From NCBI GenBank assembly GCA_963706025.1, contig CAVPLM010000008.1:64001-128000 (forward strand): a stretch of DNA of 64,000 nt, read 5' to 3'. The translations under genes were made by a program, and so were the position numbers. Positions 3,849 to 51,918 of this stretch are shown here, piece after piece (position 1 is the stretch's first letter; every line of letters starts with the position of its first letter). This DNA comes from an uncultured Actinomycetes bacterium (GTDB taxonomy: Bacteria > Actinomycetota > Thermoleophilia > RBG-16-64-13). The notes under the pieces were generated by a model. It saw only the letters and a list, made by a program, of their open reading frames with translations. It was not told where the DNA came from and made no database searches.

Positions 3849-3995
3849 GAAGGGAAAGAGACGGACGTGAAGGCACCGGACGATACAGCCCCCTCTCTCC
3901 GGTAGGCCGCCAGACAACCATGAACCTTTGCTCGGTTCCGCGCAATGGAGGACGCGCCTGCGTGGCCCCATCAGAGGCCGCGAGATGGGGGTCCC

Positions 3996-4592
3996 CTACC
4001 GCCCCTGCTGCTCTCGACCGCCCCTCTTCCTGACGAGAAGCCAGGGAAGCGCGAGCAGGATGACAGCCGCCGCACAGCCGACGAGGGTTCCCGCAAGAAC
4101 GCCGGGGACCCGAAAGCTAGTGGCGGCCAGGGCGATGAGCCCGAGCAGGGCGCCGGCGAGAGCGGTCAACCCCAGGTTCCGCAGCCACACTCCGACGACA
4201 CGGGTATCGACGAAGGCTGAGGATGGCAGTTGCCCCAGCCAGAGAAGGACTTCTGTCAAGACCACCAGACCGGCGGCGTACGCGATTATCGAGAAGGTGC
4301 CCGCCCGGCCGGTCGCTTCGACCACCACATATTCGGCCGCCAGGCTGAAGAGGGCGGGGCCTGCGAAGTGGATGCGGGAGAACAGAGCGAGCAGCGTGAA
4401 AAGCACGCCAACGGCTCCGAGCGCCGTCACAGCCGGGACTAGGCTGCCGGCGCGCACGATGGGATAGGCGACGAGGGCGCCGGCCATGACGACCGCCACT
4501 GCCCCCAGCCCTATGCGAATACGTATCGCGCGAAGCGACGGAATGCTGTCACCTCCTCCACTACAGCCGCGAGAGGGGCTCGGCCGTCCCAC
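3996..4592 (-). CDS. Hypothetical membrane protein of the MoxR operon (true start probably near 4520)
   Basis: Several hydrophobic segments; follows the DUF58 gene. Confidence 0.6.
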   Translation of the reverse strand: MGRPSPSRGCSGGGDSIPSLRAIRIRIGLGAVAVVMAGALVAYPIVRAGSLVPAVTALGAVGVLFTLLALFSRIHFAGPALFSLAAEYVVVEATGRAGTFSIIAYAAGLVVLTEVLLWLGQLPSSAFVDTRVVGVWLRNLGLTALAGALLGLIALAATSFRVPGVLAGTLVGCAAAVILLALPWLLVRKRGGREQQGR

Positions 4593-35357: not shown

Positions 35358-36277
35358 CCTCCTTCGACTCGACACAGGGGCCAAAGCAGTTGGTGGTCCT
35401 GAGCGGAAAAGGGGGCACCGGCAAGACCAGTCTGGTCGCGGCTCTGGCCACCTTCGTCCCCGACAAGGTCCTCGCCGACTGCGATGTCGACGCCGCCGAC
35501 CTGCATCTGGTGCTGGATCCTAAGCGCAAGCACAGGGAGCCCTTCGTCTCCGGCAAAGAGGCCCGCATCGCGCCGGAGCGCTGCAGCGCGTGCGGCCTGT
35601 GCATGGAGCACTGCCGATTTGACGCCGTCCACATGGCCCGATACAACGGCGGTCGGTCGGTCTATGCGGTCGATCATCTCGCTTGCGAGGGATGCGGGCT
35701 CTGCGCCCGGGTCTGCACGTCCGGGGCGGTGGATATGTTGGACGCCGAGCGCGGGGAATGGTTCGTCTCGGATACGCGCCACGGTCCCCTGGTGCATGCT
35801 CGACTCAACATCGGAGGGGAGAACTCGGGTAAGCTCGTCACCGTCGTCAGGAACCAGGCTCTGGCACTGGCTCAGGAGACGGGCGCCGGCCTAGTCCTCG
35901 TCGACGGTCCCCCGGGCATCGGTTGCCCTGTCATCGCCTCCGTCACGGGGGCGGACCTGGTACTGGCCGTGACCGAACCGACCGTCTCGGGGGCCCACGA
36001 CCTGGAACGGGCAGCCGACCTGGTGCGGGGTTTCGGCCTGCCCCTGGCGGTATGCATCAACAAGAGCGACCTCAACCCGGACATGGCCGAACGCATCAGT
36101 GACCTCTGCGCCGCCCGTGGATTCCCCGTGGTGGGTGAGCTGGACTACGATATCGCCGTGGTGCGGGCGCAGGTGGAGGGGAAGAGCATCGTGGAATACG
36201 GCCCCAGCGTGGTCGCCGATCAGATACGAAAGATGTGGGGAGTCCTGGAAAGCATGTTGAAGAAAGCGGAGGCATAG
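35354..36277 (+). CDS. MinD-like P-loop ATPase with inserted ferredoxin domain (paralog)
   Basis: SGKGGTGKTS, DCDVDAADLHL, ENSGKLV, DGPPGIGCPVIAS. Confidence 0.9.
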   Translation: MTSFDSTQGPKQLVVLSGKGGTGKTSLVAALATFVPDKVLADCDVDAADLHLVLDPKRKHREPFVSGKEARIAPERCSACGLCMEHCRFDAVHMARYNGGRSVYAVDHLACEGCGLCARVCTSGAVDMLDAERGEWFVSDTRHGPLVHARLNIGGENSGKLVTVVRNQALALAQETGAGLVLVDGPPGIGCPVIASVTGADLVLAVTEPTVSGAHDLERAADLVRGFGLPLAVCINKSDLNPDMAERISDLCAARGFPVVGELDYDIAVVRAQVEGKSIVEYGPSVVADQIRKMWGVLESMLKKAEA

Positions 36278-36279
36278 AG

Positions 36280-37521
36280 ATGGATTGCACGCAGCCGGGC
36301 AACGACCGCGCGCTGGCGGTCAACGAGAGAATGGCTCACGTCAAGCACAAGATCATCGTCCTGTCCGGCAAAGGCGGGGTGGGCAAGAGCACGGTCGCGG
36401 TCAGTCTCGCCACTTCTCTCGCGCTCGAAGGCAAGCGTGTAGGGCTTCTGGACGTGGATCTGCACGGACCGACCGTCCCCCAGCTCATGGGTTTGAATGG
36501 TCACTCGGTGGTCACCGAGGGACAGGTCCTCGTCCCCGTCGAGGTGGGCGAGAGTCTCAAAGTCATGTCGATCGGCTTCTTGCTGGGCGAGCAGGACGGA
36601 GCCGTCGTGTGGCGCGGCCCCATGAAGGCGATCGCCATCGAGCAGTTCCTGGGAGAGGTCGAATGGGGTGAGCTCGACTATCTGATCATCGACTCGCCAC
36701 CGGGTACGGGTGACGAGCCGCTGGCGGTCTGCCAGGCCATCGGCAAGATGGACGGAGCCATCATCGTGACCACTCCACAGGAGACCGCGCTCAGCAACGT
36801 GCGCCGTTCGATCAAGTTCTGCGCGCTGCTCGACCTGAAGGTCCTGGGGGTCATCGAGAACATGGCCGGCTTCGTCTGTCCGCATTGCGGGGAGGTCACC
36901 AACGTCTTCAGCAAGGGCGGCGGAGCCACGATGGCGGCCAAGGCCGGCGTCCCTCTGCTGGCCACGGTACCTCTCGATCCCACTATCGTCGAGGCGGGCG
37001 ACGCCGGCCGGTCCTTTGTCTATCACTACTCGAAGAGCCCTGCCGCCCAGGAGTTCGCCAAGGCCGTGGGCCCCATACTTGCCCTTGACGAGGACACATC
37101 TGTTGAGGCCACGCCGGCGGGAAGCCGCGGCCCAGAGGCTGACCGCGTTGATGCGGTCCCGGTCGCAGAGGTCGACTCCGTTCTCCGTTTCGCCGTTCCC
37201 ACCAGTGACGGACTCCTCTGTCCCCACTTCGGCCACTGCCAGGAATTCACCCTCATCGACGTCGATGCGCCGTCGAAAAAGGTGCTCGGCCTGACCAGGG
37301 TCCCCGCTCCCGAGCACGAACCCGGGCTGCTTCCCGCCTGGCTGGCCGACAAAGGAGCCGGCTTCATCATCGCCGGAGGGATGGGTTCGCGGGCCCAGCA
37401 GTTGTTCGCCGAGCAGGGGGTGACCGTCGTCACCGGTGCGCCCATGGCCGAGCCGGAGACCATCGTCCAGCAGTTTTTGGACGGCGCTCTGGTGATCGGG
37501 GATAACGTGTGCGATCACTGA
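36280..37521 (+). CDS. Mrp/NBP35 Fe-S carrier fused to a NifB/NifX domain (MrpORP-like)
   Basis: GKGGVGKST, WRGPMK, DSPPGTGDE, CPHC; C-terminal HFGHCQEF..HEPGLLP..NVCDH. Confidence 0.9.
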   Translation: MDCTQPGNDRALAVNERMAHVKHKIIVLSGKGGVGKSTVAVSLATSLALEGKRVGLLDVDLHGPTVPQLMGLNGHSVVTEGQVLVPVEVGESLKVMSIGFLLGEQDGAVVWRGPMKAIAIEQFLGEVEWGELDYLIIDSPPGTGDEPLAVCQAIGKMDGAIIVTTPQETALSNVRRSIKFCALLDLKVLGVIENMAGFVCPHCGEVTNVFSKGGGATMAAKAGVPLLATVPLDPTIVEAGDAGRSFVYHYSKSPAAQEFAKAVGPILALDEDTSVEATPAGSRGPEADRVDAVPVAEVDSVLRFAVPTSDGLLCPHFGHCQEFTLIDVDAPSKKVLGLTRVPAPEHEPGLLPAWLADKGAGFIIAGGMGSRAQQLFAEQGVTVVTGAPMAEPETIVQQFLDGALVIGDNVCDH

Positions 37522-37539
37522 TCGGGGACGGAGCGAGCC

Positions 37540-37971
37540 GTGGATGGAGAAGAGCCCGGACGCGCAAGGTTATACCTGGATCCCGTCCTCGAGCACTTCT
37601 TGCGTCCCCGTAACGTGGGTGAGATCGCCGATGCCGATGGCGTAGGAGTCGTGGGTGATCCCGAGTGCGGTGACTACTTCAAGGTCTGGATCCGGGTGGA
37701 GGGCGATGTGCTTGCCGAGGTCAAATACAAGGTCTTGGGCTGCCCCGCGGCCATAGCCACCTGCAGTATGATGAGTGAGTTGGCCACGGGAAGGAGCGTC
37801 GATGAGGCTTATGAGCTGGACGACCTTGATATCATGCATGCTCTGGGAGGGCTGCCAGAGTCCAAGCAACACTGCTCCAACCACGCGGCGTCAGCCTTGC
37901 ATGAGGCTATCGATGACTTCGTATTCCGGAAACCAGCAAGACAACGGGCGGTGACCGAGGATGGGCCCTGA
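37540..37971 (+). CDS. IscU/NifU-like Fe-S scaffold
   Basis: HFLRPRNVG, PECGD, LGCPAAIA, LPESKQHCSN. Confidence 0.88.
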   Translation: MDGEEPGRARLYLDPVLEHFLRPRNVGEIADADGVGVVGDPECGDYFKVWIRVEGDVLAEVKYKVLGCPAAIATCSMMSELATGRSVDEAYELDDLDIMHALGGLPESKQHCSNHAASALHEAIDDFVFRKPARQRAVTEDGP

Positions 37972-38467
37972 TCAAGGCGGGACTCGAGGCCGAGGCAGGC
38001 GAGGAGCGGGACCAGGCTCCTGCGGCGGACCGGGCGGCGGACCGGGCGGCGGACCGGGCGGTGGCCCAGGCGGTGGCCCAGGCGGCGGCCGCTATCGGAG
38101 ATCGGTGCTCGAAGTGGCGATACTTTCCTCGCTCGCCCAGTCCACTGCCCACGGATACAACCTGGTGGATCAGATCGAGGCTCTCACTGGGGACTTGATC
38201 TGCATCGACCCGGGAAGTATGTATCGTCTCCTACGCGCCATGGAGGAAGAGGGGCTGCTCAGTTCGTCGTGGCAGACGCCTGAAGCGGGCCCCAGCCGAC
38301 GAGTCTACGCAATCACCGAACGAGGCATCGAGGCACTAGAGCTCGTAGCGAGGTCCCTTTCGCAGAGAGCGGCTTCCATGCAGCAACTCGCTGATCATGC
38401 TGCTCAGGCTGTTGCCAGGTTCCGCGCTGCCGGTCTAGTCGCAGATGCGGGTACTCCGCAGCGGTAG
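37961..38467 (+). CDS. PadR family regulator with N-terminal (GGGP)n tract
   Basis: AHGYNLV..DPGSMYRLLRAMEEEGL..RRVYAITERG. Confidence 0.88.
   Translation: MGPDQGGTRGRGRRGAGPGSCGGPGGGPGGGPGGGPGGGPGGGRYRRSVLEVAILSSLAQSTAHGYNLVDQIEALTGDLICIDPGSMYRLLRAMEEEGLLSSSWQTPEAGPSRRVYAITERGIEALELVARSLSQRAASMQQLADHAAQAVARFRAAGLVADAGTPQR
38024..38089 (+). repeat. 12-bp coding tandem repeat (GGGP)
   Basis: GGCGGCGGACCG / GGCGGTGGCCCA, about 5 units. Confidence 0.8.
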
Positions 38468-40194: not shown

Positions 40195-40389
40195 GGACTG
40201 GACTTCAGGCGAAACGCGTGGGAGGGCTCGATCGTAGAGAAACGACTCAAGAAGCTTAAAGGGGTCGCGAGTCTCACTCTCAGCATGGTGACGAATCGTC
40301 TGAGCGTCGTCTACGATCCCGAGGTGGTATCCGTTGAGGACATCGAGAAAGAAGTGACCAAGGCGGGGGCGAAGACGGTGCGCACCTGA
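40195..40389 (+). pseudogene. HMA (CopZ/CadA-like) metal-binding domain remnant
   Basis: GLD[FRRNAW]EGSIVEKRLKKLKGVASLTLSMVTNRLSVVYDPEVVSVEDIEKEVTKAG*; no start codon and no Cys motif. Confidence 0.65.
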
Positions 40390-40432
40390 TCGGGCTCGGC
40401 TTGGAGAACCCTGGTGAAGGCTTAACGAGCTG

Positions 40433-40822
40433 ATGAACGAACAACCGGTGAAATCGACCATGCGTGTGACGAAGGCTCTGGCCGATCCTCAGCGTGTCCG
40501 AATCTTGCTGCTTCTACGCCGCGGTGAGCTGTGCGTATGCCAGATCGTCGAGGTACTCGAACTCGCTCCTTCCACCATCTCCAAGCACCTCTCTCTTCTG
40601 GCCGCTGCCGCCCTCGTTGAGGTGCACAAGCAGGGACGCTGGGCGTACTACCGACTGCCCGACGGGGACGCCGGCCAATTTCTCAGTCCACTGCTTGAGT
40701 GGTTGACACTAGCTCTGCGGGGCGACGAGACGATCGAGCAAGACGCACGCACCTTGGATGAGGTCCTGGCCCTCTATCCTGAAGAGGTTGCGCGTAATCA
40801 GAGGGCGCGTGCCCATGAGTGA
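40433..40822 (+). CDS. arsR: ArsR/SmtB family regulator
   Basis: KALADPQRVRIL..ELCVCQ..SKHL..WAYYRL. Confidence 0.9.
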   Translation: MNEQPVKSTMRVTKALADPQRVRILLLLRRGELCVCQIVEVLELAPSTISKHLSLLAAAALVEVHKQGRWAYYRLPDGDAGQFLSPLLEWLTLALRGDETIEQDARTLDEVLALYPEEVARNQRARAHE

Positions 40823-40935
40823 AGCTCAGGCGGAGTCTCTCTCTTCGACCAACTGCGCGATGGTCGTTCCCTGGAACAACTCTTCGAGTAGATCGGTTGC
40901 TTTCATCCAGAAGGGGCGGACACCCGGGGTAAGAC

Positions 40936-41991
40936 CTAGACAGGGACCTCCAACTCCCACAGCAACTTCGCAAGAGCATCCGTCAGATCACTTGGCAACG
41001 GGCTGCACTGCACTAAGGCTCGCGCCGTATCGAGCGTCTTGCCACACATGGATTCGGTCAGCGCCTGCAGGTCGATCTGACGGGGCAGCAAGAAGTCGCC
41101 TTGCACGTCCACCCTTCGCAGAATGGGCCCGTCCAGGTCGACGACGAGGGTCAGCACTCCACTGGGGGTCTTGGTGGAGAGGACCGACGTGTACGCCAGC
41201 CGGGGGTGGAACGTCCATTCCGGGCGTGCATACTTCACCTTGTACAATTCACCCGTGCGAGCGCGTTCCTCTCTCAAGAGTTCTCCCGGAACCAGCCTGA
41301 TCTCAAGCCGATCCGCGAGGTGCCTCGTGAGTTTCTCCATCACCTCATGCACTTGGATCAACCGGTCGGCCGCCTCGCTCAGCGTGATGACCCGATCTCG
41401 AACAGTGTCGATCCCCTTGTCGGCGAACTTCAGCCGCGACGGCCGGAGCGCTTTCTCCATCACTGCGCAATCTGTGGAAACGAGGAAGGTGCCGCTGTGC
41501 ACGAAGGCCTTGCCCCACTCCACCTGCGCGGAACCGTAGACCTTGCGTCCGCCAACAGTGCAGTCGTTCGTCGGTGAATGGGCCGCCTCCACGCCATATT
41601 CCGCGCACGTATCGACCACGGCGCGTGCGACTATCGGGTAGAGTTCGGCTGCTTCAGCTATTCCCATTCGGTCGAACAACTCCTTATGCCGGAAGAAAAG
41701 CGAGAAGCAGAAGCTCCCCTCATCCTGGTATACGGCACCTCCGGGGTTGTGGCGCCGCACGACGGGTATGCTCTTGCTCCGGCAATACTCCAGATCCACG
41801 TCTTCCTCCGGCACCTGATAGACGCCGATCCAGACTGAAGGCACTACTTGGCGTAGGCGAAGAGTGTCGGGACTGGTCCCTTCATCGACGCCACGCAGCA
41901 GGGCCTCCTCCACGGCAAAATGCCGGAAGGGGCCCTTGATGCCGTCGAACAGTAGCCGGAATGGAGGCCTAGTTGGTGTGGAAGTAGACAC
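40936..41991 (-). CDS. lplA: Lipoate-protein ligase A (catalytic plus C-terminal domain)
   Basis: AVEEALL, VVRRHNPGGAVYQD, NDCTVGGRKVYGSAQ, HSGT, C-terminal GDF. Confidence 0.88.
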   Translation of the reverse strand: MSTSTPTRPPFRLLFDGIKGPFRHFAVEEALLRGVDEGTSPDTLRLRQVVPSVWIGVYQVPEEDVDLEYCRSKSIPVVRRHNPGGAVYQDEGSFCFSLFFRHKELFDRMGIAEAAELYPIVARAVVDTCAEYGVEAAHSPTNDCTVGGRKVYGSAQVEWGKAFVHSGTFLVSTDCAVMEKALRPSRLKFADKGIDTVRDRVITLSEAADRLIQVHEVMEKLTRHLADRLEIRLVPGELLREERARTGELYKVKYARPEWTFHPRLAYTSVLSTKTPSGVLTLVVDLDGPILRRVDVQGDFLLPRQIDLQALTESMCGKTLDTARALVQCSPLPSDLTDALAKLLWELEVPV

Positions 41992-42691
41992 AGCGTTCCC
42001 TCTTACATTCCTCGGTCACTTGGGAGAACGCGCAGTGGATCACGTCCGAAACGACAAATGCGACCCCTAGTTCGCTGCTCATGAATCCCGCGGCAGCCTG
42101 AAGCGTGGCGTACACGCTCTGTTTGCAGCAACGTGGACCACCGAGTTGGGCTGCGTCCATCAACGCGCGGGCAGTCCCTCGCAGGGCCAGTGACCGCTCC
42201 CGGTCCGAACGGAACGTGGCCCCGGTCAGAAGAGAGACCGCACAGCCCAGGCCGGCACAGGCTCCGCAGTCACCCCTTGTGCCGCATACGCCTACCGGTA
42301 TATCTCCCATCCGACGGAGGGCAGCCCGGATTGCACCTTTTCGCACCGAGCAACCTTGATTCCGTAGCGCCGCCAGAATCGTAGGCGCCACCAGCAGATG
42401 ATGCTCGGGACCATGTTGATTGAACACAGGGTGCTTCATGATGAGGTCGACGATCTCGAGCGGGTCCGGGTTCGTGGTTGCCACGCACAGGCGCTCGATG
42501 ATTTCCTCGGAGGATGCCGTCCTGCAGCTCTCGCAGACATAATGGCCCTGGGGGCAGAGCCATTCACACCTCTCCTCGGCCCCGCAATATGAACAGGTCT
42601 GCAGTCGCGATTTCTCCAGCAGCTCAACGCCGCAAAGGGGACAATAGAACGCTACCGGGACCTGCCACTCCCCTCCAGGAATAGTCTCCAC
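41969..42691 (-). CDS. DUF5714 Cys-rich protein
   Basis: CPQGHYVCESC, HGPEHHLLV, GVCGTRGDCGAC, GPRCCKQ; start uncertain. Confidence 0.8.
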   Translation of the reverse strand: METIPGGEWQVPVAFYCPLCGVELLEKSRLQTCSYCGAEERCEWLCPQGHYVCESCRTASSEEIIERLCVATTNPDPLEIVDLIMKHPVFNQHGPEHHLLVAPTILAALRNQGCSVRKGAIRAALRRMGDIPVGVCGTRGDCGACAGLGCAVSLLTGATFRSDRERSLALRGTARALMDAAQLGGPRCCKQSVYATLQAAAGFMSSELGVAFVVSDVIHCAFSQVTEECKRERCVYFHTN

Positions 42692-42692
42692 C

Positions 42693-43028
42693 CTACTCCT
42701 GCCAACCTTCCGGTCCCTTTGCCAACTCCTCGCGTATCCTGGCATCGACCTTCCGAGACTCCGGCACCACCTGTTTAGTGACCAAGCGTCCATTGATATA
42801 GACGGCCGGAACCCGACAATACTTCCTCTGGGCCCGATAGGACACGGTCGTCGTCACAGGCGGTGTTTGTCCCCACACATAGACGTCCAACCGCACGAGG
42901 TCGGGAAAGCGACGCGTCATCTCCTCCATCACCGCCACGGTGGCCCGACACTTCTGCGTGGGCGGGCCGGCGATGACCACTTCCAGTCGCAGACGCTTTT
43001 GTGGCCTATTCTTATTCACAGCAGTCAC
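42693..43028 (-). CDS. Thioredoxin-like small protein (TxxC)
   Basis: LEVVIAGPPTQKC...VPAVYING...VP, similar to 51133-51390. Confidence 0.65.
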   Translation of the reverse strand: MTAVNKNRPQKRLRLEVVIAGPPTQKCRATVAVMEEMTRRFPDLVRLDVYVWGQTPPVTTTVSYRAQRKYCRVPAVYINGRLVTKQVVPESRKVDARIREELAKGPEGWQE

Positions 43029-43130
43029 TTGTCAGTTCTCCTGGAGCTGGGCCGTTATTCACGGTGGTCGGCTTGTCCGCCCTGTGACCACGTGCGGAGG
43101 AACATCACGGGTCGGGGTTGGATCTTGACG

Positions 43131-44560
43131 CTAGGGGCACCGTATCACCCCGTGGCTCCACAAACATGCTCCGCAGCGCGGGAAGGTGTCGTCCTCGCAG
43201 TCCTCCTCGTTGCCGTCAGACATGCTGCAGCCTCCGCAGGCGACGCAAGGGCGAAGTCGAAGTCCTGGACCCTCTTGCGAAAGGCGACATAATCGGGATC
43301 AGACCAGATATCCGTGAGACTCCGCTCGTTTAAGTGGCCGATCGCGTAGCGGTCGACGCGGCGTATTCGACGAAATAGCAGCTCCTCATGCGTGTGCACC
43401 AACGCCTGACAGGGACTGACGTTGCCCTCCCAAGAGACCGATGTGCTTCCCGCCTCGATGAAAGGGCAGCGCCTGGTGATCCCGCCCACATCTGTTCCAA
43501 GAAGCGTCGCTTCATGTCGGCCGTGAATCACCACCCAGAGAGGTCTCCGCGTGGTCTCAGTCACGTCCATGGGCGGCAGTCTTAATGCGTCGGGCCACGG
43601 GGTCGGTAGCGGCGCTATTCCGAGGGAGTCCTCGTAGAGGATCTCGGAGAGCAGCTCTCGGGTGTAAGGGATGACGTTGCTGATATTGAATCGGCTGGCT
43701 CCGACTAGTCGTCCGATCCAAAGGAGGAAGGGGAGATCGGTGATGTTTCGCTTCATGGCCACGAAGGCGATGCCGATCTCGGGGGCCGGACGGGAGCCTC
43801 TAGTATCTTGGAGATGTGTAGACGAGGTGGTGAAGACCGTGGAGCTGTCGTCCTTCAAATCCCGTACGAGGTCCAAGAGGTAGCGTTCCATGGATACGTA
43901 TTGGTCAACGAGCCCTCGGACCAGTCCCCAGCCCGGAAGTTCGTGCGGTTCGGGAAGGCTGGAGCAGTCACACAACCGGCGGCGGACTTCTCTGAACCCC
44001 CGCAAGTTCTCCAGCACCTGGGGGAGCAAGGCGCCCAGGCGCACATCGCTGTAGCTCTCAGGACGGATGCCGTCCAGCGATACCCAGAGAGTATCGAGAC
44101 CGGCCTCAATCAGGGAGCGGGAGGTCTCTTCGCTTAGGAGGCAGCCGTTGGTTATGAGTTCGACTTTGGGGGAGCCCAGATCCTTCACCCGAGCCACCAT
44201 CTCCAGGATCCCGGGATGGGCCAGGGGCTCGCCGAACCCGCCGAAAAACACAGCTGGCAAACGATCGAAGGCCGCAAGTCCTTCAAGCAGGCGAGTGAAG
44301 GTCTCCTCGCTCATGTCGCCCAAAGGTTCTGCCCAGGCATTTCGGATGCAGGTGCGGCAGGTGAGGTTACAGCGGCTGGTGGGCTCCACATACACTTTGG
44401 CCAGCTGCTCTACCGGGCGGCGGAGACGGGCGCTGTTGGGCTCCTCATCCAGGGTGACCGAAATTCCCGGACGTAGGCCCAGGCGGTTTGCCACTTCAGG
44501 GGGAAGCACCAACCGACCATCGGTATCGACGGTAGCTATGAGGTGGTCAAGAAGGTTCAA
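43131..44560 (-). CDS. Radical SAM/SPASM protein with AbrB-like N-terminus (W-cofactor oxidoreductase maturase-like); 1-nt frameshift at about 43250
   Basis: CNLTCRTC, GGFGEPL, RCPF..VSPC; one extra C restores PCVACGGC..DC..CGACLWSHGVIRCP*. Confidence 0.85.
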
Positions 44561-44578
44561 GACAGGCCGCCGCTGCCA

Positions 44579-44977
44579 TCAAGTGGGAACACACGAGCCT
44601 CCCGCGGCACACGTCTTCACTGCGAGCCAGTGCTGGAGCCGCTCATCAAGGGCGGATAGAACCTGCGGATCCAAGGCCTCTCTAGCACTCGCCAGAATGG
44701 CACGTAGCGGAGGTTCAAGATCATCGGCCAACCGGTAGTAGATCCACACGGCTTCCCGACGATCGTCAACCAGTCGCGAGTTCAAGAGGTAGTGCAGGTG
44801 GCGCGAGGCCTTTGACTGGGTGATATCAAGCGCATGCTCAAAGTCACAGACGCACAACTCCGCATGCTCAGCGAGCAGGACCACCATCTGTATGCGGGTT
44901 TCATCGGACAGGGCCTTGAGCTTCCCTGCCAGTTGACGCGCATCCGAGGAAGGGTGTGTCATCGAATCCTCACACAC
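44579..44977 (-). CDS. arsR: ArsR/SmtB family regulator
   Basis: KALSDETRIQM..ELCVCD..SRHL. Confidence 0.9.
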   Translation of the reverse strand: MCEDSMTHPSSDARQLAGKLKALSDETRIQMVVLLAEHAELCVCDFEHALDITQSKASRHLHYLLNSRLVDDRREAVWIYYRLADDLEPPLRAILASAREALDPQVLSALDERLQHWLAVKTCAAGGSCVPT

Positions 44978-45075
44978 TTCGACTCAATTTGCGCTACCAT
45001 TATAACCGTTCAAGCGTGTGTACGCGAGGACGGCATGATCAGTAACTCCAGTCGCGGCGAAACGCGTGGGAGGCT

Positions 45076-46434
45076 ATGAAGCGTCTTTCTTTTCTTGACA
45101 GGTTCTTGACCCTGTGGATCTTCCTGGCCATGGCCATCGGCGTGGTGGCCGGCTACCTCTGGCCCCAGATCGGCAAGGCCATCGAGAGCGCGTCTATCGG
45201 CACCACCTCGATCCCCATCGCCATCGGTCTTATCGTCATGATGTACCCGCCGCTCGCGAAGGTCCACTACGAGGAATTGGGAGACGTCTTCCGCAATACG
45301 AAGATCCTGGGGCTTTCGCTGGTGCAGAACTGGATCATCGGTCCCATCCTCATGTTCTTCCTGGCCATTTTGCTCTTGTCCGACAAGCCGGGACTCATGC
45401 AAGGCGTGATCATGATCGGACTGGCCCGCTGCATCGCCATGGTCATCGTCTGGAACGAGCTGGCCAAGGGGGATAGCGAGTACGCTGCCGGACTGGTGGC
45501 CTTCAACTCGGTGTTCCAGGTGCTGTTCTACTCGGTCTACGCCTACGTGTTCCTCACCGTTCTGCCCGGCTGGTTCGGGTTGGAAGGGACGGAGGTGGAC
45601 GTGAGCATGGCCGAGATCGCGAAGAGCGTGGGTATCTACCTGGGCATCCCGTTTGTCGCCGGTATCCTCACCCGGTTCACTCTGCTGCGCTTCAAGAGCA
45701 AAGAGTGGTACGACCACGAGTTCATCCCCCGCATCAGCCCCATCACCCTGATCGCCCTACTGTTCACCATCCTGGTGATGTTCTCGCTCAAGGGCGAGAT
45801 CATCGTGCAACTGCCGCTGGACGTCGTGCGTGTGGCCATTCCTCTCTTGATCTACTTCGTGGTCATGTTCTTTGTCAGCTTCTACATGGGCAAGAGGGTG
45901 GGCGCCGACTATCGCAAGAGCACCACTCTTGCCTTCACGGCCGCCTCCAACAACTTCGAGTTGGCCATCGCAGTTGCCATATCCGTATTCGGACTGGCTT
46001 CGGCCCAAGCCTTCGCGGCCGTCATCGGTCCCTTGGTGGAGGTGCCGGTCATGATCGGCCTCGTCAACGTGGCCTTCTGGTTGCAGCGACGATATTGGCC
46101 GGCCAGGGAAACGGACACGGCGCCTGCGGTGGTGGGCGCGGAAGGGCAGGATCTTGGCTGTCCGACCGATGATCGGCCGTACAATCCAAGACACATACCA
46201 AGACGGGAGATGAATGATGTCACAAGGCAAGGACCAAGAGACGGTCCACGAAGCCGTGCGCGACCGGTACGCGGAGATCGCGAGAACAGGCTCATCGTGC
46301 TGCGGCGGTTCGCCCTGCTGCGGTCCAGCGCCGGCGGACGAAGAGGGCGACGAACTGTATCTCGCCCGCAAGGTAGGTCACACCGAGTCGCTCAAGCTTG
46401 GCTACACCGAGGAGGAACTGGCGGCGGCACCTGA
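45076..46434 (+). CDS. acr3: Acr3 arsenite efflux permease (natural stop probably near 46182; ORF runs into arsM as assembled)
   Basis: [48 protein letters not shown]. Confidence 0.95.
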
Positions 46435-47050
46435 GGGAGCCAACCTGGGCCTGGGCTGCGGCAATCCGCAGGCCATTGCGGACTTGAAGCCGGGAGAAGT
46501 GGTGGTGGATCTGGGTGCCGGTGCAGGTTTCGACTGCTTCCTCGCCGCCCGGGCGGTCGGCTCGGATGGTCTCGTGATCGGTGTGGACATGACCCCAGAG
46601 ATGGTAGGCACGGCCCGTGAGATCGCGAGGAGCTCCGGATACGAGAACGTCGACTTCCGTCTGGGCGAGATCGAGCATCTGCCGGTACCCGACGAGACGG
46701 CAGACGTGGTCATCTCCAACTGTGTGATCAACCTATCTCCGAACAAGCCGGCGGTCTATGAGGAAGCCTTCCGGGTGCTCAGGCCGGGGGGACGTCTGGC
46801 AGTGAGCGATGTTGTGGCCACGGCTGAGCTACCGCAGGAATGGCGGGACGACATGCGCCTGCTTTCGGCCTGCATCTCGGGAGCCGCCACCACGAGGGAG
46901 GTTGAAGAGATGCTTCGGGCGGCGGGTTTCGTGGACATCGCCATCCGTCCCAAAGAGCAAAGCCGGGAGTTCATCCAAGAATGGGAACCAGGGAGAAACC
47001 TCGAGGACTACGTCCTCTCTGCCAACATCTGCGCGACGAAACCCCAATAA
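46214..47050 (+). CDS. arsM: Arsenite S-adenosylmethionine methyltransferase
   Basis: [38 protein letters not shown]. Confidence 0.95.
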
Positions 47051-47088
47051 CGACCTGACGCGACAACGGAGAGGAGACGTGAGAGGGG

Positions 47089-47823
47089 ATGAGGCGAACG
47101 ATCGAGACTCTGGCGCTCTTCTCTGACGTGCACGGGAACCGCCTCGCCCTCGAGGCAGTCCTCGACGACCTGCGGGCCCGAGAGATCACCAGGATCTGCT
47201 GCCTGGGTGATCTGGTCGGATACGGCCCCGATCCCAACGGGGTGATCGACCTGATTCGTAGCCAGGGCATCGACAGCATCCTCGGAAACTACGACGAAGG
47301 GGTCGCCTGGGAGACGGGCGATTGCGGCTGCTTCTATGCGGATGCGGAGGCCAAGCGCATCGGCGAGGCGTCTTATGCCTTCACCGTCGCCACGGTGACG
47401 GCCGAGAGGAAGGCCTATCTGCGCACCCTGCCGCGGGAGCTGCACGTGGACCTCGCCGGCAAGAAGGTCCACTTGGTGCATGGCAGTCCCCGGCGCATCA
47501 ACGAATACCTCTCCCGTGACCGCGACGAACGGACCTACCGGCGACTGGCGGAAGCCGAATCGGATGACGTCCTCGCCTTCGGACACACCCACGACCCCTG
47601 GTTCCGCCGGTACGGAAAGACGTTGTTCGTCAACGTGGGTTCGGCCGGGCGACCCAAAGACGGGGACCCTCGAGCCGCCTATGTCCTCTTAAGGTCGTCC
47701 ACCGAAGTACCGGTGGACGTAGAGATCGTCCGGGTCGCGTACGATGTAGAGGCTGCGGCCGACGCAGTCCTTGCCGCCGGTCTGCCGGCCACGCTCGCCG
47801 AAATGTTGCGGCGCGGAAACTGA
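47089..47823 (+). CDS. Metallophosphoesterase family protein
   Basis: SDVHGN, GDLVGYG, GNYD, HGSP, GHTH, NVGSAGRPKDGDPRA. Confidence 0.92.
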   Translation: MRRTIETLALFSDVHGNRLALEAVLDDLRAREITRICCLGDLVGYGPDPNGVIDLIRSQGIDSILGNYDEGVAWETGDCGCFYADAEAKRIGEASYAFTVATVTAERKAYLRTLPRELHVDLAGKKVHLVHGSPRRINEYLSRDRDERTYRRLAEAESDDVLAFGHTHDPWFRRYGKTLFVNVGSAGRPKDGDPRAAYVLLRSSTEVPVDVEIVRVAYDVEAAADAVLAAGLPATLAEMLRRGN

Positions 47824-47948
47824 GCAAGGAGACACTCTCAATGGACCCACGCGCAGCCCACGCCACCAGCATCTGGAGATCGACATCCACCGGTCGGGGC
47901 GCGGATGGTCGTGATAGTCGTCGCACTTATTGTGGAGGTTGAGGACTG

Positions 47949-48374
47949 ATGGCCGAGACAGCGGAAGAACTGGAAACCACCGAGAGCAAGCAGCAACGAC
48001 CCGGCCTGATCATGTGCGTCTGCACCGGCAAGTGCCCGGGATTCGAGAAGATGGACATCTGGGACTTCATAAATCGAGTGCGGATCGAATTGCCGGTCGA
48101 ATTCGGGATGATCCATCCGCAACTCTGCGAGGAAGACGGGGACCGTTTCTTGGCCGACTTTCTCCAGGCCAAGCGGCCGTTGGTCATTGCTGCCTGTGCC
48201 CCCAACATGCAGTACAAGATGTTCCGGGACGCCTTCGCCGCCGAGGGCATGGACGTGAAGAAGGATATGGTGCCTCTCGACATCCGCGACATGACCACCG
48301 ACGAGGCGGTTGAGAAGGTGGCGGCAGCGCTGCGCGACATGGGCATCGACGAGGACGGTGGCGAGGATGGCTGA
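47949..48374 (+). CDS. Stand-alone heterodisulfide reductase HdrA N-terminal-like domain
   Basis: MCVCTGKC...QLCEEDG...VIAACAPNMQYKMFR...LDIRD. Confidence 0.7.
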   Translation: MAETAEELETTESKQQRPGLIMCVCTGKCPGFEKMDIWDFINRVRIELPVEFGMIHPQLCEEDGDRFLADFLQAKRPLVIAACAPNMQYKMFRDAFAAEGMDVKKDMVPLDIRDMTTDEAVEKVAAALRDMGIDEDGGEDG

Positions 48375-48675
48375 GACCACTTTCATGGGAGTGCCGCGCA
48401 GCAAGATCCCGTGGGCTCCCACCATCGACTACGACAAGTGCGACTTCTGCATGGAGTGTGACGAGTTCTGCCCGCACCGGGTCTTCGAGCGGCGAGAAGG
48501 CGACGTCAAGCTCGTGGTAGCCAATCCCGACAACTGCGTGGTGTTCTGCCGGGCCTGTGCCAAGACCTGCGGCCCCGACGCGCTCTCGTTCCCCGACAAG
48601 CCGGAGACCGTGGCCCTCATCAAGAAGCTGCATGCGGCGGAAGGCGAGTCGCGCACCGAGGAGGGCGGGGCATGA
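48367..48675 (+). CDS. 2x[4Fe-4S] ferredoxin
   Basis: CDFCMECDEFCP and CVVFCRACAKTC. Confidence 0.9.
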   Translation: MAETTFMGVPRSKIPWAPTIDYDKCDFCMECDEFCPHRVFERREGDVKLVVANPDNCVVFCRACAKTCGPDALSFPDKPETVALIKKLHAAEGESRTEEGGA

Positions 48676-49532
48676 GCTACGCAGTCCTTGCCTGCACGGG
48701 TCTCGACAAGGCCGAGGGTTCGGTGACCCGCGAAGTGGCCATCCGCCTGGCCCAGGAGACTGGAGCCGAGATCGTCTGCCCGGTCGTGCTCAACCGCACC
48801 CCTGCCCGATACAAGAAGACACTGGCCGAGAACCGGCTAATCGTCGTCGACGGGTGCGCCACGCAGTGTGCGAGTAAGCTCGCCGCGGCCAAAGGAACGA
48901 AACCGGCCCAGAAGGTGATCGTTTCCGATGTGGTCAAGAAATCAGGTGGCGCCCTTGAACCTGACCTCCGCCTCGGCTCCGATGCTCTCGAGCTTGCCCG
49001 GAAGATCGTCGACGACATCAAGGCAGCTGAGACTGCCGAATCCAAAGAGACGCGGGCAGCCAAGGAAGCACCGGCGGAGGCGGAGTTTGAAAGCCCATCG
49101 GATTTCACGGTAGTCGTCTACGACAAGTACGAGTTCCGCGTCCCCTTGACCGGATTCTTCTTCAACGCTAACGACGTCTGGGCGCAGGTGGCCGGAAGCA
49201 GGGCCCGAGTGGGCATCTCCGACTACATGCAGCAGCGGCTCACGGATATCACCTACGTGGACCCGCCCGACGTCGGCACGACCATCGAGCAATTCGACGA
49301 GGTGGGCACTGTCGAGTCGACCAAGGCTACCTTCGAGGTAGTCTCCCCTGTGAGCGGCACGGTCGTGAAGATCAACGAGGCGGTGACAGACGTGCCCGAG
49401 TCGATCAACGAAGATCCGTACGGCAGCTGGATCGTCGAACTGGAACTGACCTCTTGGGAGGAAGACCAGGCGTTACTGGTCGATGGACCGGCGTACGCCG
49501 CCGACGTGGAGCGCAAGGCCGCCGAAGACTAA
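48672..49532 (+). CDS. DGC zinc-binding domain fused to a GcvH-like lipoyl carrier
   Basis: N-terminal AC..C..DGCATQCA; C-terminal RVGISDY..GTVESTKAT..SPVSGTV..INEDPYG with the lipoyl Lys. Confidence 0.88.
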   Translation: MSYAVLACTGLDKAEGSVTREVAIRLAQETGAEIVCPVVLNRTPARYKKTLAENRLIVVDGCATQCASKLAAAKGTKPAQKVIVSDVVKKSGGALEPDLRLGSDALELARKIVDDIKAAETAESKETRAAKEAPAEAEFESPSDFTVVVYDKYEFRVPLTGFFFNANDVWAQVAGSRARVGISDYMQQRLTDITYVDPPDVGTTIEQFDEVGTVESTKATFEVVSPVSGTVVKINEAVTDVPESINEDPYGSWIVELELTSWEEDQALLVDGPAYAADVERKAAED

Positions 49533-49547
49533 AGAGCGAGAGGACTC

Positions 49548-49967
49548 ATGGAAAACGACTGCGACAAGGTGCTGGTCATCCCCTGTAGCGGCATCGGCAA
49601 AGTCCACGGGCTCATCAGCCGGGAGTCCGCCTACCTGGTCACCGATGAGCTGGCGCCGGGAGAGACCGACGTGGTCTGCTTGGCGCTTCTAGTGAAAGAA
49701 GATGAAGAGACCCGGGCCGAAGTGCAGGCGCACCCCTGCATCACCATCGATGGCTGCGGCAAGGCCTGTGCTCAGAAGAACGTGGAGATCGCCGGAGCAA
49801 AGGTGGCTGAAGCCTTTCAGGTGGCCAGATTCCTGAGCAGCCACCGGGGAGCCCAGCCGGGCAGCGGGTCGGAGCTGACCGAAGAGGGCTGGGCCATCAG
49901 CCGGGAGATCGCTGAAGCCGTGGCCGCAGAGGCCGCTCGCCTCCGCGCAGGTGAGGAGGTGGCCTGA
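49548..49967 (+). CDS. DGC domain putative zinc-binding protein
   Basis: PCSG..CL..IDGCGKACA. Confidence 0.88.
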   Translation: MENDCDKVLVIPCSGIGKVHGLISRESAYLVTDELAPGETDVVCLALLVKEDEETRAEVQAHPCITIDGCGKACAQKNVEIAGAKVAEAFQVARFLSSHRGAQPGSGSELTEEGWAISREIAEAVAAEAARLRAGEEVA

Positions 49968-50659
49968 TGTCCGCCGAAATGAACAAGGCCACCAAGGTGG
50001 GGATCATCTCCTGCAGTGGCGAGGAGATCCCCGAAGGCACCATCTCGCGCAGTGCCGTCCGCCGGGTGCTCGAGTCCCTGCGTCCTCACGATGCTGTCAC
50101 TCTCTGCTTGCCGCTGTTCTTGGCCGGTAACGAAGGCGAGCGCAACTTCGCTCGGACCCACCCCACGATCACTATCGATGGGTGCGACAAGCAGTGCGCG
50201 CGGTGGGGCACTGAGAAACACGGCGGGCCCGTTGCGCGTGCGTTGGTGGTCTCGGAAATCTTGGGCACTGAGGCAGCAGGCTGTTCACGCTCCTTGCGCG
50301 GGCGTGGGCAGGCCGACGAGACGGCCGTTGCTGCTGTGGCCGACCGGATAGCGGCCGAGGTCGACGCGCTCATGAGCGAAGGCGTGAAACCGCAAATGGC
50401 AGAGGACCCAGAGGCGGACGTATGCGCCTGCATGAAGCCTGCGCCGACGGGATCCGTCTGCGTGCGCGGAAAGCAGGTGGAGATAAACGCTTTGCCCATG
50501 GTCTTCGCCAAGTTGGCTTCCGATGGGATGCGGGCAGAGGACTCGAACGCTTCGGCTCTTCTCGAGACGGTGAAGATGTTCCACTACATCGCTCCTGAAG
50601 AGGAGTCGGACTACCGGGATGCCCTCCTCGCGGCGTACCGAGCCTTCGTTGGAGGTTGA
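49967..50659 (+). CDS. DGC domain protein with C-terminal extension
   Basis: SCSG..CL..IDGCDKQCA; CAC linker. Confidence 0.85.
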   Translation: MSAEMNKATKVGIISCSGEEIPEGTISRSAVRRVLESLRPHDAVTLCLPLFLAGNEGERNFARTHPTITIDGCDKQCARWGTEKHGGPVARALVVSEILGTEAAGCSRSLRGRGQADETAVAAVADRIAAEVDALMSEGVKPQMAEDPEADVCACMKPAPTGSVCVRGKQVEINALPMVFAKLASDGMRAEDSNASALLETVKMFHYIAPEEESDYRDALLAAYRAFVGG

Positions 50660-50722
50660 TCCAGCAAACAACCGTTTGTACAGTTATAATTCGCCGAGTC
50701 GAGAGTTCGGGAGCTACGGAAT

Positions 50723-51097
50723 ATGGATACCCTGAGCGACACGTTCAAGGCGTTGTCCGACGAAACGCGCGTACAGATCATGACGCTTCTCTTGGAGCAT
50801 GACGAGCTATGTGTGTGCGACTTCGTCGGTGCGCTGGGCCAGACACAGTCGAAAGTGTCACGTCATCTCCGCTATCTCTACCACGCCGGGCTGGTGCGGG
50901 ACCGCCGAGAAGGGCTCTGGATGCACTACCGCGTCTCCCCCGATCTCAGGCCGGAGCAGGCGACCATCTTGGCTGCGCTTTCCGAGGCGGTCGGTGAAGA
51001 GCGAAAGAAGGAACTGCGTCAAGCGCTGGAACGGTGGTTCGCGCAGAAGGCATCGACTGGTGAGGCGGGAGGGCAAGAAGCGGCGTCCTGCTGTTAG
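50723..51097 (+). CDS. arsR: ArsR/SmtB family regulator
   Basis: FKALSDETR..ELCVCD..SRHLRYL; C-terminal CC. Confidence 0.92.
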   Translation: MDTLSDTFKALSDETRVQIMTLLLEHDELCVCDFVGALGQTQSKVSRHLRYLYHAGLVRDRREGLWMHYRVSPDLRPEQATILAALSEAVGEERKKELRQALERWFAQKASTGEAGGQEAASCC

Positions 51098-51132
51098 CGG
51101 GCCGCAATGCTGGACATGGAAGGTGGAGGGTC

Positions 51133-51390
51133 TTGATCGAGGTCAAGGTTTTCGGTAGCGAGCCGCCCTGCGTGAAGTGCAAGCAGGCGGAAGGGGAAGC
51201 CAGGAAGGCGGCGGAGAAGTTCCCTGGCCAGGTAACGGTGGCGAAGCATTCGGCCCTTTCCCCGGAAGGGCTGGGACTGGGGCTCATGATGACGCCCGCG
51301 GTGGTTGTCAACGGCAAAGTGATCTCCCAGGGCCGCGTCCCGCAAGAGAGCGAACTCGAACGTATCTTTCGATCAGAACTAGGAGGGTGA
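51133..51390 (+). CDS. Small thioredoxin-like redox disulfide protein
   Basis: PPCVKC, TPAVVVNGKV..GRVP. Confidence 0.88.
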   Translation: MIEVKVFGSEPPCVKCKQAEGEARKAAEKFPGQVTVAKHSALSPEGLGLGLMMTPAVVVNGKVISQGRVPQESELERIFRSELGG

Positions 51391-51391
51391 C

Positions 51392-51667
51392 GTGCCTGTG
51401 CTTATGGAAGTGTTCAGCGGAGATCCGCCCTGCCCCGGCTGCGTCGCCATCCTGGCGATGGGAGACCGGTACGCCCAGAAGTACCCGGCGGAGGAGCTGA
51501 CGGTCAAGAAGTACGTCGGTCGGGAGGCGCTCGAGAAGTACGAGGAATACAACCTCTCCTGCGTGCCGGCGGCCGTCATCAACGGCGTTATCAAGATAGA
51601 AGGAACGGCTCCAGATGAAGGCACAATGAACAACGCGCTCCGGGAGGGCGGGCTATGGATCCGATAA
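51392..51667 (+). CDS. Small thioredoxin-like protein
   Basis: PPCPGC, VPAAVING. Confidence 0.85.
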   Translation: MPVLMEVFSGDPPCPGCVAILAMGDRYAQKYPAEELTVKKYVGREALEKYEEYNLSCVPAAVINGVIKIEGTAPDEGTMNNALREGGLWIR

Positions 51668-51918
51668 AGGTGGAGGTCTTTCTTTCGGTGCCTGCTTGCT
51701 CCGGCGGCGTTGCGGTCCGGCGGTTGATCGATGATGTCGCCGCGGAGTACGGCGACCAGATGGATGTCGTCTATCACCAGGGCCGCGACGAGCGCTACGA
51801 GGAGCTGAAGCTGTCTTCCGCCCCGGCGATCATCGTCGGTGATCTGGTGCGTTTCATCGGATTATGCCCCACCAAGGAAGGCTTGATCGGTGCGCTGAGA
51901 GAAGCCGGGCTGGAGTAG
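51655..51918 (+). CDS. Small thioredoxin-like protein (CxxG)
   Basis: VEVFLSVPACSGG, APAIIVG, GLCP. Confidence 0.75.
   Translation: MDPIKVEVFLSVPACSGGVAVRRLIDDVAAEYGDQMDVVYHQGRDERYEELKLSSAPAIIVGDLVRFIGLCPTKEGLIGALREAGLE

Follow-up and report, generated by a model that had tools for sequence, protein, structure and literature searches.

Why should a lipoate-protein ligase and a relative of the glycine cleavage H protein be encoded among genes for arsenite efflux and arsenic methylation? The question is raised by a gene island at positions 40433–51918 of a 64 000-nucleotide stretch of actinobacterial DNA, called the window below, which is C8:64001-128000 (contig C8) of a 3.66-Mb metagenome-assembled genome (MAG; 92% complete, 7.3% contamination). 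The nearest public relatives of this genome are MAGs labelled Gaiellales/Actinomycetes, and the region is best read as an arsenic island under ArsR control in a Gaiellales-like actinobacterium. Interest centres on a cassette within it rather than on the single island; this cassette, hdrAN-fdx-DGC-GcvH, very probably constitutes, to judge from the genes that it contains and accompanies, an arsenic-linked accessory module with a lipoylated carrier. The whole would best be explained as an ArsR-controlled, ferredoxin-fed dithiol relay around that carrier which handles trivalent arsenic, a reading to which we give a probability of about 0.5.

The gene calls rest on Pfam and NCBIfam profile scans together with the translations, and all 18 genes of the predicted inventory were found in place. 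Five of them, on one strand, form the core cassette: a five-cysteine protein resembling the N-terminal domain of HdrA (HdrA-N-like), a ferredoxin, a fusion of a DGC domain to a GcvH domain, and two further DGC proteins.

47949..48374, forward strand: HdrA-N-terminal-domain-like protein of 141 amino acids (aa); no Pfam match, profile likeness to HdrA N-termini
48367..48675, forward strand: HgcB-like 2x[4Fe-4S] ferredoxin (PF12838, PF00037), its start overlapping the end of the HdrA-N-like gene
48672..49532, forward strand: DGC-GcvH fusion (PF08859, 69 bits; PF01597, 103.5 bits), with the motif VESTKA
49548..49967, forward strand: second DGC protein, DGC2 (PF08859, 54.5 bits)
49967..50659, forward strand: third DGC protein, DGC3 (PF08859, 59.8 bits), with a C-terminal extension of ∼90 aa

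In the fusion, a disordered linker connects a four-cysteine DGC domain to the GcvH domain, which bears the lipoyl lysine; the intact VESTKA motif claimed in the original prediction is present in the translation, and C8, C36, C62, C66, E215, S216, K218 and A219 are invariant in 23 sequences. In an AlphaFold2 (AF2) model (predicted local distance difference test, pLDDT, 85.3), the GcvH domain has the canonical H-protein fold (Z 22.0 against 1dxm, root-mean-square deviation (rmsd) 1.2, 130 residues aligned), while the DGC domain is flavodoxin-like, its best match and sole notable structural neighbour being 3pu6, an uncharacterised Wolinella protein (Z 9.5, rmsd 3.2, 116 aligned). The GcvH domain lies under the equivalog cut-offs of TIGR00527 (95 versus 115.85 bits) and NF002270 (112.5 versus 117 bits), and does not reach that of the GcvH-L family TIGR03077 (59.3 versus 144.05 bits). 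An N-terminal extension is common to the GcvHs of the cassettes but missing from the canonical GcvH of the window's genome. All three DGC domains exceed the Pfam gathering score of 27 bits; when DGC2 was searched by sequence against the PDB, nothing meaningful came up. In metagenomes the fusion family is represented by 120 clusters listed at at least 59% identity and labelled only ‘glycine cleavage H protein’, and a search for fusions of greater length came back empty, a negative of little weight.

In the PDB, a profile of 15 orthologues of the HdrA-N-like protein matches solely HdrA N-termini (three matches, E 0.001, 0.013 and 0.2), the best being to residues 6–93 of 7bkb_A (E 0.001), and the nearest Atlas cluster bears the name HdrA-like. 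Its cysteines C23, C25, C29, C60 and C83 are invariant. The protein appears to be under strong constraint, because it keeps 71–91% identity to the window's copy across families where the fusion protein is only ∼40% identical. The ferredoxin scores 37.7 bits with the HgcB family NF040864, below its cut-off. A complex prediction for the HdrA-N-like and DGC-GcvH proteins returned a score of 0.00, which is no answer and counts neither for nor against binding.

How widely is this arrangement kept? A search for related loci returned 78, among which 16 (L001–L016) contain a full-length relative of the fusion, and the order hdrAN-fdx-DGC-GcvH-DGC-DGC is retained in the 15 actinobacterial members of this set (L001–L013, L015, L016). 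The gene arsR3 comes next after the cassette in 13 of the 16 loci and at least two thioredoxin (Trx) genes lie downstream in nine, while arsM is found upstream in nine, acr3 in five and a radical S-adenosylmethionine (SAM) gene in three. lplA and DUF5714 are adjacent in none of the own-family actinobacterial loci; by tblastn at at least 50% query coverage, from which the gene counts in the family are taken, DUF5714 was not found in three of five close-relative genomes.

Two of these loci, L010 (4418–6030) and L011, carry a gene for a flavin adenine dinucleotide (FAD)-dependent disulfide oxidoreductase, split by a frameshift, and a rhodanese gene upstream of acr3-arsM-cassette. The flavoprotein was considered as a dihydrolipoamide dehydrogenase (Lpd) and not so assigned, its best scores being with PRK06370/RclA/MerA-like families. 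The rhodanese (L008, L010) was rejected as an Acr2-type arsenate reductase on account of its signal/lipoprotein-like N-terminus and six-residue active-site loop, which we take to speak against that class.

The phylum was surveyed in 401 Actinomycetota genomes (400 and the window's own), in which DGC was detected in 22, DUF5714 in 25 and acr3 in 109. acr3 is present in 18 of the 22 DGC-positive genomes as compared with 91 of the 379 DGC-negative ones. Among the 17 other genomes with both genes, 11 have DGC no more than 10 kb from acr3 on the same contig (families f1, f13, f21, f30 and f35), as against a chance expectation, estimated from genome size, of ∼1% per genome. An ArsR-family gene is present in 13 of the 20 actinobacterial DGC loci that were fetched, and acr3 in 11. 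The full cassette occurs in four further actinobacterial families, with a fusion protein of 38–47% identity, and a fifth family has a reduced form.

L177: arsR-acr3-...-DsbD_2-Se_S_carrier-FeS(PF04060)-cassette-trx, on one strand
L178: arsR-trx-...-cassette-LplA catalytic-domain gene
L180: arsR-acr3-trx-trx, divergent to GcvH-like-PadR-ABC-cassette-LplA catalytic-domain gene-GcvH
L181: cassette-LplA catalytic-domain gene-trx-ArsC (LMWPc)
L183, fifth family, reduced form: arsR, arsR and acr3, divergent to GcvH-DGC-DGC

A ‘putative Fe-S cluster’ protein of ∼180 aa (PF04060), missing in the window, adjoins the cassette in three of these loci (L177:5675-6229, L178:11502-12044 and L181:2269-2817). 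In L180, the 192-aa GcvH-like protein beside arsR-acr3 (5283–5861) has lost the lipoyl lysine, LPTERL replacing ESTK, and may be a non-lipoylated decoy or regulator.

The cassette also reaches into the Archaea, where, in three genomes, DGC and GcvH are separate genes.

L227: acr3-arsR, divergent to hdrAN-fdx-DGC-DGC-DGC-GcvH
L226: hdrAN-fdx-DGC-DGC-DGC-GcvH ∼4 kb from arsR-acr3, with a Trx_3-like gene between and an ArsC-like gene on the other side
L014 (Bathyarchaeota): ferredoxin, three DGC, separate GcvH, CBS pair, DUF5714, LplA-like fusion and second LplA-like gene; the contig ends just upstream

Among 301 genomes of the phylum of the Bathyarchaeota locus, DGC was found in 49 and DUF5714 in 13. 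Of the 20 archaeal loci fetched, 9 have an HdrA-N-like gene next to the DGC gene, mostly together with a ferredoxin gene, and because of this the HdrA-N-like/ferredoxin/DGC trio looks like the deepest core of the system.

Taken over two phyla and ∼100 loci, GcvH-containing cassettes occur in nine lineages (f1, f30, f23, f35, f66, f21 and the three archaeal genomes, with the window's family counted once). arsR, acr3 or arsC stands beside the cassette in eight of the nine, the ninth being cut by a contig end, and an LplA-type gene stands there in five. Only the window's own family has arsM near the cassette. Apart from the 192-aa protein of L180, all aligned cassette-linked GcvH proteins keep the lipoyl lysine. 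The enrichment of DGC-GcvH and lplA modules near ars genes on which the original prediction had been staked was thus borne out, in that linkage to arsR, acr3 and arsC is strong and repeated, and for this reason we regard as established, at the level of gene content and order, a conserved, ArsR-linked accessory module around a lipoyl-type carrier in two domains of life.

Does the carrier have a ligase of its own? In the window, lplA is the last gene of a leftward operon that runs, in order of transcription, arsR2, radical SAM/SPASM, Trx-like ORF, DUF5714, lplA.

40936..41991, reverse strand: LplA-type lipoate-protein ligase of 351 aa with a C-terminal domain (PF21948, 147.3 bits)
41969..42690, reverse strand: DUF5714 protein (PF18978, 170.6 bits) with an N-terminal double zinc ribbon and 12 invariant cysteines
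42693..43028, reverse strand: small Trx-fold-like protein with TQKC and without CxxC; no Pfam or NCBIfam match
43134..44560, reverse strand: radical SAM/SPASM protein (PF04055, 54 bits; PF13186, 42.6 bits) with an AbrB/MazE-like N-terminal domain

In the ligase, the motifs GGAVYQD and GRKVYGSAQ, presumably the catalytic and lysine motifs of LplA, align with those of other LplA-type proteins; the TIGR00545 equivalog is not reached (177.7 versus a cut-off of 280 bits), and neither is the sHdr-type LplAB family NF053751 (106.9 versus 550 bits). The claim that the carrier is ‘privately lipoylated’ survives in part. The LplA-type genes beside the cassette in five of nine lineages are in its favour, but all five cassette-bearing close relatives have a single PF21948 (LplA/LipB-family) gene, far from the cassette, and a dedicated ligase is therefore not required. 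The window's genome has LipB and LipA but no LplA-type ligase apart from that of the island, and its other PF21948 match is LipB. As predicted, the window has no gcvP, gcvT or 2-oxoacid dehydrogenase gene: gcvP, gcvT and three E2 genes sit on contigs C5, C3 and C16, with canonical gcvH, gcvP and gcvT on C5, and lipA and lipB are likewise on other contigs. GcvH/P/T and the three E2 lipoyl enzymes are plausible targets of trivalent inorganic arsenic, As(III), in this genome.

The remaining genes of the island comprise the classical arsenic genes, their regulators and three small Trx-like genes.

40433..40822, forward strand: arsR1 (PF01022, 57.5 bits; NF033788, 92 bits), with ELCVC, convergent to lplA
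44579..44977, reverse strand: arsR2 (PF01022, 44 bits; NF033788, 85 bits), with ELCVC and C-terminal cysteines
45076..46434, forward strand: acr3, arsenite efflux permease (TIGR00832, 464.2 bits, cut-off 282.8, residues 4–333)
46214..47050, forward strand: arsM, As(III) S-adenosylmethionine methyltransferase (NF008823, 342.6 bits, cut-off 263)
47089..47823, forward strand: YfcE-like metallophosphoesterase (PF12850, 93 bits)
50723..51097, forward strand: arsR3 (PF01022, 57.8 bits; NF033788, 95.4 bits), with ELCVC and C-terminal SCC
51133..51390, forward strand: trx1, Trx_3/ArsE-like, with CVKC (PF13192, 54.9 bits; TIGR00412, 52.7 bits, below the cut-off of 62)
51392..51667, forward strand: trx2, Trx_3-like, with CPGC (PF13192, 29.9 bits)
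51655..51918, forward strand: trx3, Trx_3-like, with CSGG and a single cysteine (PF13192, 23.0 bits, cut-off 24.8; TIGR00411, 33.3 bits)

Acr3 and ArsM both reach curated family scores, and ArsM shows a Cys-rich N-terminus and the motifs GCGNP, NCVINL and ACISG. The rightward operon runs from acr3 through arsM, the phosphoesterase gene (which follows arsM in the window and in four related loci, L002, L009, L012 and L013), the 141-aa protein, ferredoxin, DGC-GcvH, DGC, DGC and arsR3 to three Trx_3/ArsE-like genes. arsR2, first gene of the leftward operon, is divergent from acr3, so that two divergent runs are present as described, but arsR1 belongs to neither. ELCVC was confirmed in all three regulators, and we take the CVC of this motif, in helix 3 of ArsR, to be an As(III)-binding site. 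Four genes stand where ‘four thioredoxins’ had been counted, but CxxC occurs in only two of their products (CVKC and CPGC), trx3 is sub-threshold and the product of 42693–43028 has no family match; the MTH895/ArsE cut-off of TIGR00412 is missed by trx1, with trx2 and trx3 lower still. Scans of the window for promoters and terminators gave background level only, and no shared operator-like inverted repeat stood out.

The leftward genes have connections of their own. DUF5714, whose reading frame is open up to 42793 and whose public gene calls begin at a Met that yields 240 aa, aligns with 12 invariant cysteines and one invariant histidine, and scores 142.9 bits with NF045648 (MbdU), below the cut-off of 600. 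Its AF2 model has a pLDDT of 92.8; Foldseek of this model gave no PDB match at E ≤ 0.001, and the best match by VIA-align, CyuA (Z 5.3, rmsd 3.9, 132 aligned), was not taken as a fold assignment. In 20 actinobacterial DUF5714 loci, an ArsR-family gene is adjacent in 10, and acr3, arsM or LMWP-type ArsC occurs in seven; none of the 20 loci fetched has LplA, GcvH or DGC near DUF5714, which therefore has its own link to ars genes. It is separately linked to LplA genes in the window and three archaeal loci. In L014, an LplA-like gene with degenerate motifs (3363–4460; no GGGAV, no Lys) is fused to a Trx-like domain homologous to 42693–43028 and has an intact LplA-like gene as its partner; in L214 and L215 such a pair likewise comes after DUF5714, the DUF5714-LplA-LplA triad standing alone in two further archaeal loci. 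The identity of 42693–43028 to the C-terminal part of the archaeal LplA-like protein in L014 is 30% (E 4e-11), and its Atlas neighbours are Trx-like/glutaredoxin clusters at 0.91–0.95, a lead only. P0184, a protein of 467 aa, joins a class-V aminotransferase/cysteine desulfurase domain to DUF5714, and this fusion hints at a role in sulfur transfer. The radical SAM/SPASM protein has both the core and the SPASM domain and stays below the tungsten-cofactor maturase equivalog TIGR04317 (230.8 versus a cut-off of 380 bits); L002/L175:1957-4694, from a close relative, contains two tandem paralogues (69% and 54% identity to the window's), divergent from acr3.

Some features of the window are properties of the assembly. 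The listed ORF for the radical SAM protein ends at 43145, and a frameshift near 43248–43250 puts its final 39 residues in another frame; contigs of two other public runs (X2, X4) carry an extra G behind 43248, for which reason the gene is probably intact in nature and the frameshift an assembly error. The acr3 frame extends 220 nt into arsM, to 46434, although the family match stops near 46075. Contigs of other public runs differ by one-base gaps at 46166–46192, so that the overrun, too, is probably an indel artefact. Depth of cover by contigs of other runs is similar over the left arm and over acr3-arsM. We draw no conclusion from run X1, which covers the right arm with zero contigs on 40407–43662, or from runs X2 and X4, whose contigs depart from the window sequence after 47821 and give sparse cover of 48547–50581 at 90% likeness. 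Near-identical DNA is present in freshwater, sediment and wetland metagenomes. One sediment RNA library contains small contigs on arsM, DGC2, DGC3, arsR3 and trx2/3 at 91–100% identity; because DNA carry-over is possible, these are a mere hint of transcription, and they show no induction.

A second acr3-arsM-hdrAN-fdx-DGC-GcvH-DGC-DGC-arsR-trx x3 copy lies on contig C13 (2600–10750) of the window's genome, at 69–96% protein identity, fragmented by several frameshifts and without the left-arm genes lplA, DUF5714 and radical SAM; it may be a paralogue or stem from a co-binned strain. At the left edge of the island, an exact 18-nucleotide (nt) repeat occurs at 40208–40225 and again at 45056–45073, where it spans the acr3 ribosome-binding region. 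The first copy is followed, at 40228–40389, by a truncated HMA (CopZ-like) frame from which the N-terminal metal-binding half is gone. Together they look like a recombination scar. G+C content is slightly reduced across 40–46 kb. Just left of the island (35354–38467) is an Fe-S assembly-type cluster with a MinD/CbiA-type ATPase containing a ferredoxin insert, an Mrp/NUBPL-NifX fusion, NifU_N/IscU and a PadR regulator; PadR genes with Cys-rich N-termini also adjoin the cassette in L177 and L180.

What, then, might the module do? Trivalent arsenicals bind dihydrolipoyl dithiols tightly. We propose that a lipoyl group is put on the GcvH domain by LipB/LipA or, where a linked LplA exists, by that enzyme, and that low-potential electrons would pass from ferredoxin through the HdrA-N-like cluster to the cysteine sites of DGC, so that the lipoyl arm stays in the dithiol state. 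The tethered vicinal dithiol, with the thiols of the DGC and Trx-like proteins, would trap As(III) or its monomethylated form, MAs(III); such trapping would shield the cell's lipoyl enzymes, and the arsenical would be passed to Acr3 and, where present, ArsM. The carrier may serve as arsenic binder, as electron carrier or as both. We hold the capture-and-hand-over step itself more tentatively than the relay as a whole. Put at its most general, a ferredoxin-powered swinging lipoyl arm of Bacteria and Archaea might pick up trivalent (methyl)arsenic, or reduce pentavalent forms, and feed Acr3, a speculative formulation; in a bolder variant, the lipoyl arm would carry sulfane sulfur and make thioarsenicals. 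The role of reductant for ArsM, also foreseen in the original prediction, fails as a general function, arsM being near the cassette in one family only, and since the neighbourhood lacks arsM in most lineages, a role limited to ArsM recycling is unlikely. Consistent with an arsenic-related function, a DGC gene forms part of an arsR-arsP-arsE operon of Pseudodesulfovibrio mercurii that, according to a preprint, was up-regulated by arsenic (10.1101/2022.10.17.512643).

Several points weigh against a dithiol relay for arsenic. The distant, single LplA/LipB-family gene of the close relatives has been described above. No ars gene was seen in 5 of the 20 actinobacterial DGC loci (L176, L179, L184, L185 and L186), two of which, L176 and L179, are cut at contig ends, and most single-DGC archaeal loci fetched show none. 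Genes for Se_S_carrier, DsbD_2 and rhodanese occur in related loci, and in one case a cysteine desulfurase is joined to DUF5714. The window belongs to a MAG in which contamination stands at 7.3% and indel errors are evident. Sulfur systems with lipoate-binding proteins are likewise under the control of ArsR-family regulators (PMC12423496), and the DGC cysteines may merely hold structural zinc, as is assumed in the P. mercurii preprint (10.1101/2022.10.17.512643).

The main rival, which we rank second to capture and consider unlikely, is an electron relay or reductase, in which ferredoxin, the HdrA-N-like protein and DGC would reduce the lipoyl arm and this in turn the Trx-like proteins, pentavalent arsenic species (As(V) and its mono- and dimethylated forms, MAs(V) and DMAs(V)) or the disulfide of ArsM; the cassette would then replace or supplement ArsC and NADPH-thioredoxin reductase. 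This would fit the results for arsenate reductase in the window's genome (92% complete), in which the PF03960 ArsC profile and a tblastn search with the LMWP-type ArsC of L181 gave no matches, although a single query may miss a divergent ArsC; the genome being incomplete, the enzyme is ‘not found’ rather than ‘absent’. It would also fit the partners of the carrier, since the conserved redox partners are all of the Fe-S or Trx-fold kind and the cassette contains no dihydrolipoamide dehydrogenase. ArsM-AhpD fusion families exist in NCBIfam, and AhpD receives electrons from a lipoyl protein in Mycobacterium; the FAD disulfide reductase upstream of acr3 in L010 and L011 points the same way. Yet LMWP-type ArsC stands beside the cassette in L181 and L226, arsenate reduction does not need a low-potential donor, and arsM is not near the cassette outside the window's family.

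Less probable is a role in the trafficking of persulfide, selenium or thiophilic metals, perhaps with formation of thioarsenicals, by an sHdr-LbpA-like system that merely travels with ars genes. The sulfur-related neighbours and the desulfurase fusion listed above would be explained, as would ChrB_C in L014, and the NCBIfam neighbours are the selenoprotein families MbdU and TsoR/TsoX/TsoC. sHdr-LbpA is described as joining Hdr-like Fe-S proteins, a GcvH-like lipoate-binding protein, dedicated ligases and ArsR-type repressors (PMC6067878, PMC12423496). Against it, the three ArsRs carry the As(III)-type ELCVC and score far below the BigR cut-off, the recurrent neighbours are acr3, arsM and arsC, and no HdrB/C, DsrE or TusA family was hit by any of the genes profiled.

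A GcvH-mediated lipoyl relay exists in Bacillus, and an arsenic-induced spare GcvH with its ligase might re-lipoylate or replace arsenic-poisoned lipoyl proteins. We consider this improbable. In its favour are the LplA-type genes beside the cassette in five of nine lineages, the two LplA-like genes, one degenerate, of the archaeal loci and the energy-coupling factor (ECF) S-component gene near the L014 cassette; three E2s and a glycine cleavage system are there to be protected in this genome. The reading leaves unexplained the most conserved parts, namely the DGC fusion, the three DGC paralogues, the HdrA-N-like protein and the ferredoxin, and it sits badly with close relatives that have no linked ligase. 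A chance neighbourhood of unrelated operons in a MAG, for which the contamination, the past rearrangement suggested by the 18-nt repeat and truncated HMA gene and the slightly lower G+C at 40–46 kb might be cited, is highly improbable and already contradicted, because the arrangement recurs in many genomes, with the same linkage in six actinobacterial families and archaea; the similar depth of the left arm and acr3-arsM in contigs of other public runs also speaks against it.

We return to the ArsR-controlled dithiol relay. Arsenic toxicity is classically a matter of As(III) binding to dihydrolipoyl groups. If the relay is real, an ars-regulated lipoyl carrier would turn this classic target into a defence, the first such use of protein-bound lipoate, and would offer a candidate for the missing chaperone or reductase partner of Acr3. 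The gene set suggests a new way for cells to handle arsenic and gives a first functional context to DGC (PF08859), DUF5714 (PF18978) and the stand-alone HdrA-N-like protein, families without a known role. The cassette is common, and since its hosts include arsM-bearing Actinomycetota of soil and sediment, it may influence how arsenic is methylated and mobilised in wetlands and paddy-type soils. The original prediction knew of no ars system built in this way, and our searches agree: the open-access texts covered contain no system that joins DGC, DUF5714, LplA or GcvH to ars genes, beyond one passing mention of DGC. As far as these searches reach, the cassette is an undescribed variant of arsenic-resistance systems.

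How does it compare with systems already known? ArsD is a Cys-rich metallochaperone of arsRDABC operons that passes As(III) to the efflux pump, serving ArsA/ArsB; we know of no chaperone for Acr3. The analogy proposed is functional, a Cys-rich As(III) carrier encoded in an ars operon that supplies a pump. It involves no relation of sequence or fold, and ArsD needs neither a cofactor nor an Fe-S partner. The Lpd-DlaT-AhpD-AhpC antioxidant relay of Mycobacterium, which uses a metabolic E2 and NADH-dependent Lpd, likewise connects an actinobacterial lipoylated protein to a Trx-like adaptor in detoxification, whereas the island has a separate carrier, and Fe-S proteins instead of Lpd. The GcvH-L/SirTM/LplA2 operons resemble it in providing an extra, stress-linked GcvH-like carrier with its own ligase; in contrast, none of the 18 island genes matches a sirtuin or macrodomain family, and the carrier is below the TIGR03077 cut-off.

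A further comparison is with the arsR5-arsP-arsE-DGC operon of P. mercurii ND132, whose DGC is called ‘of unknown function’ in the preprint (10.1101/2022.10.17.512643). As described there, it shares with the island ArsR control, a PF13192 Trx-like ArsE and a PF08859 DGC; it differs in having one DGC, no GcvH, LplA, HdrA-N-like protein or ferredoxin, and ArsP rather than Acr3/ArsM. With sHdr-LbpA, the island has in common a GcvH-like carrier outside central metabolism, Hdr-like Fe-S proteins, LplA-type ligases and ArsR-type repressors (PMC6067878, PMC10332631, PMC12423496). In place of an HdrA with FAD domain and CCG-domain HdrB/HdrC subunits, the island nevertheless has only the 141-aa HdrA-N-like protein, with no Pfam or NCBIfam Hdr family, HdrB/C included, among its 18 genes, its carrier is fused to DGC, and the neighbours are acr3, arsM and arsC, not sulfur transferases. 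On present comparison, sHdr-LbpA appears to be the nearest precedent for the lipoyl carrier of the arsenic island.

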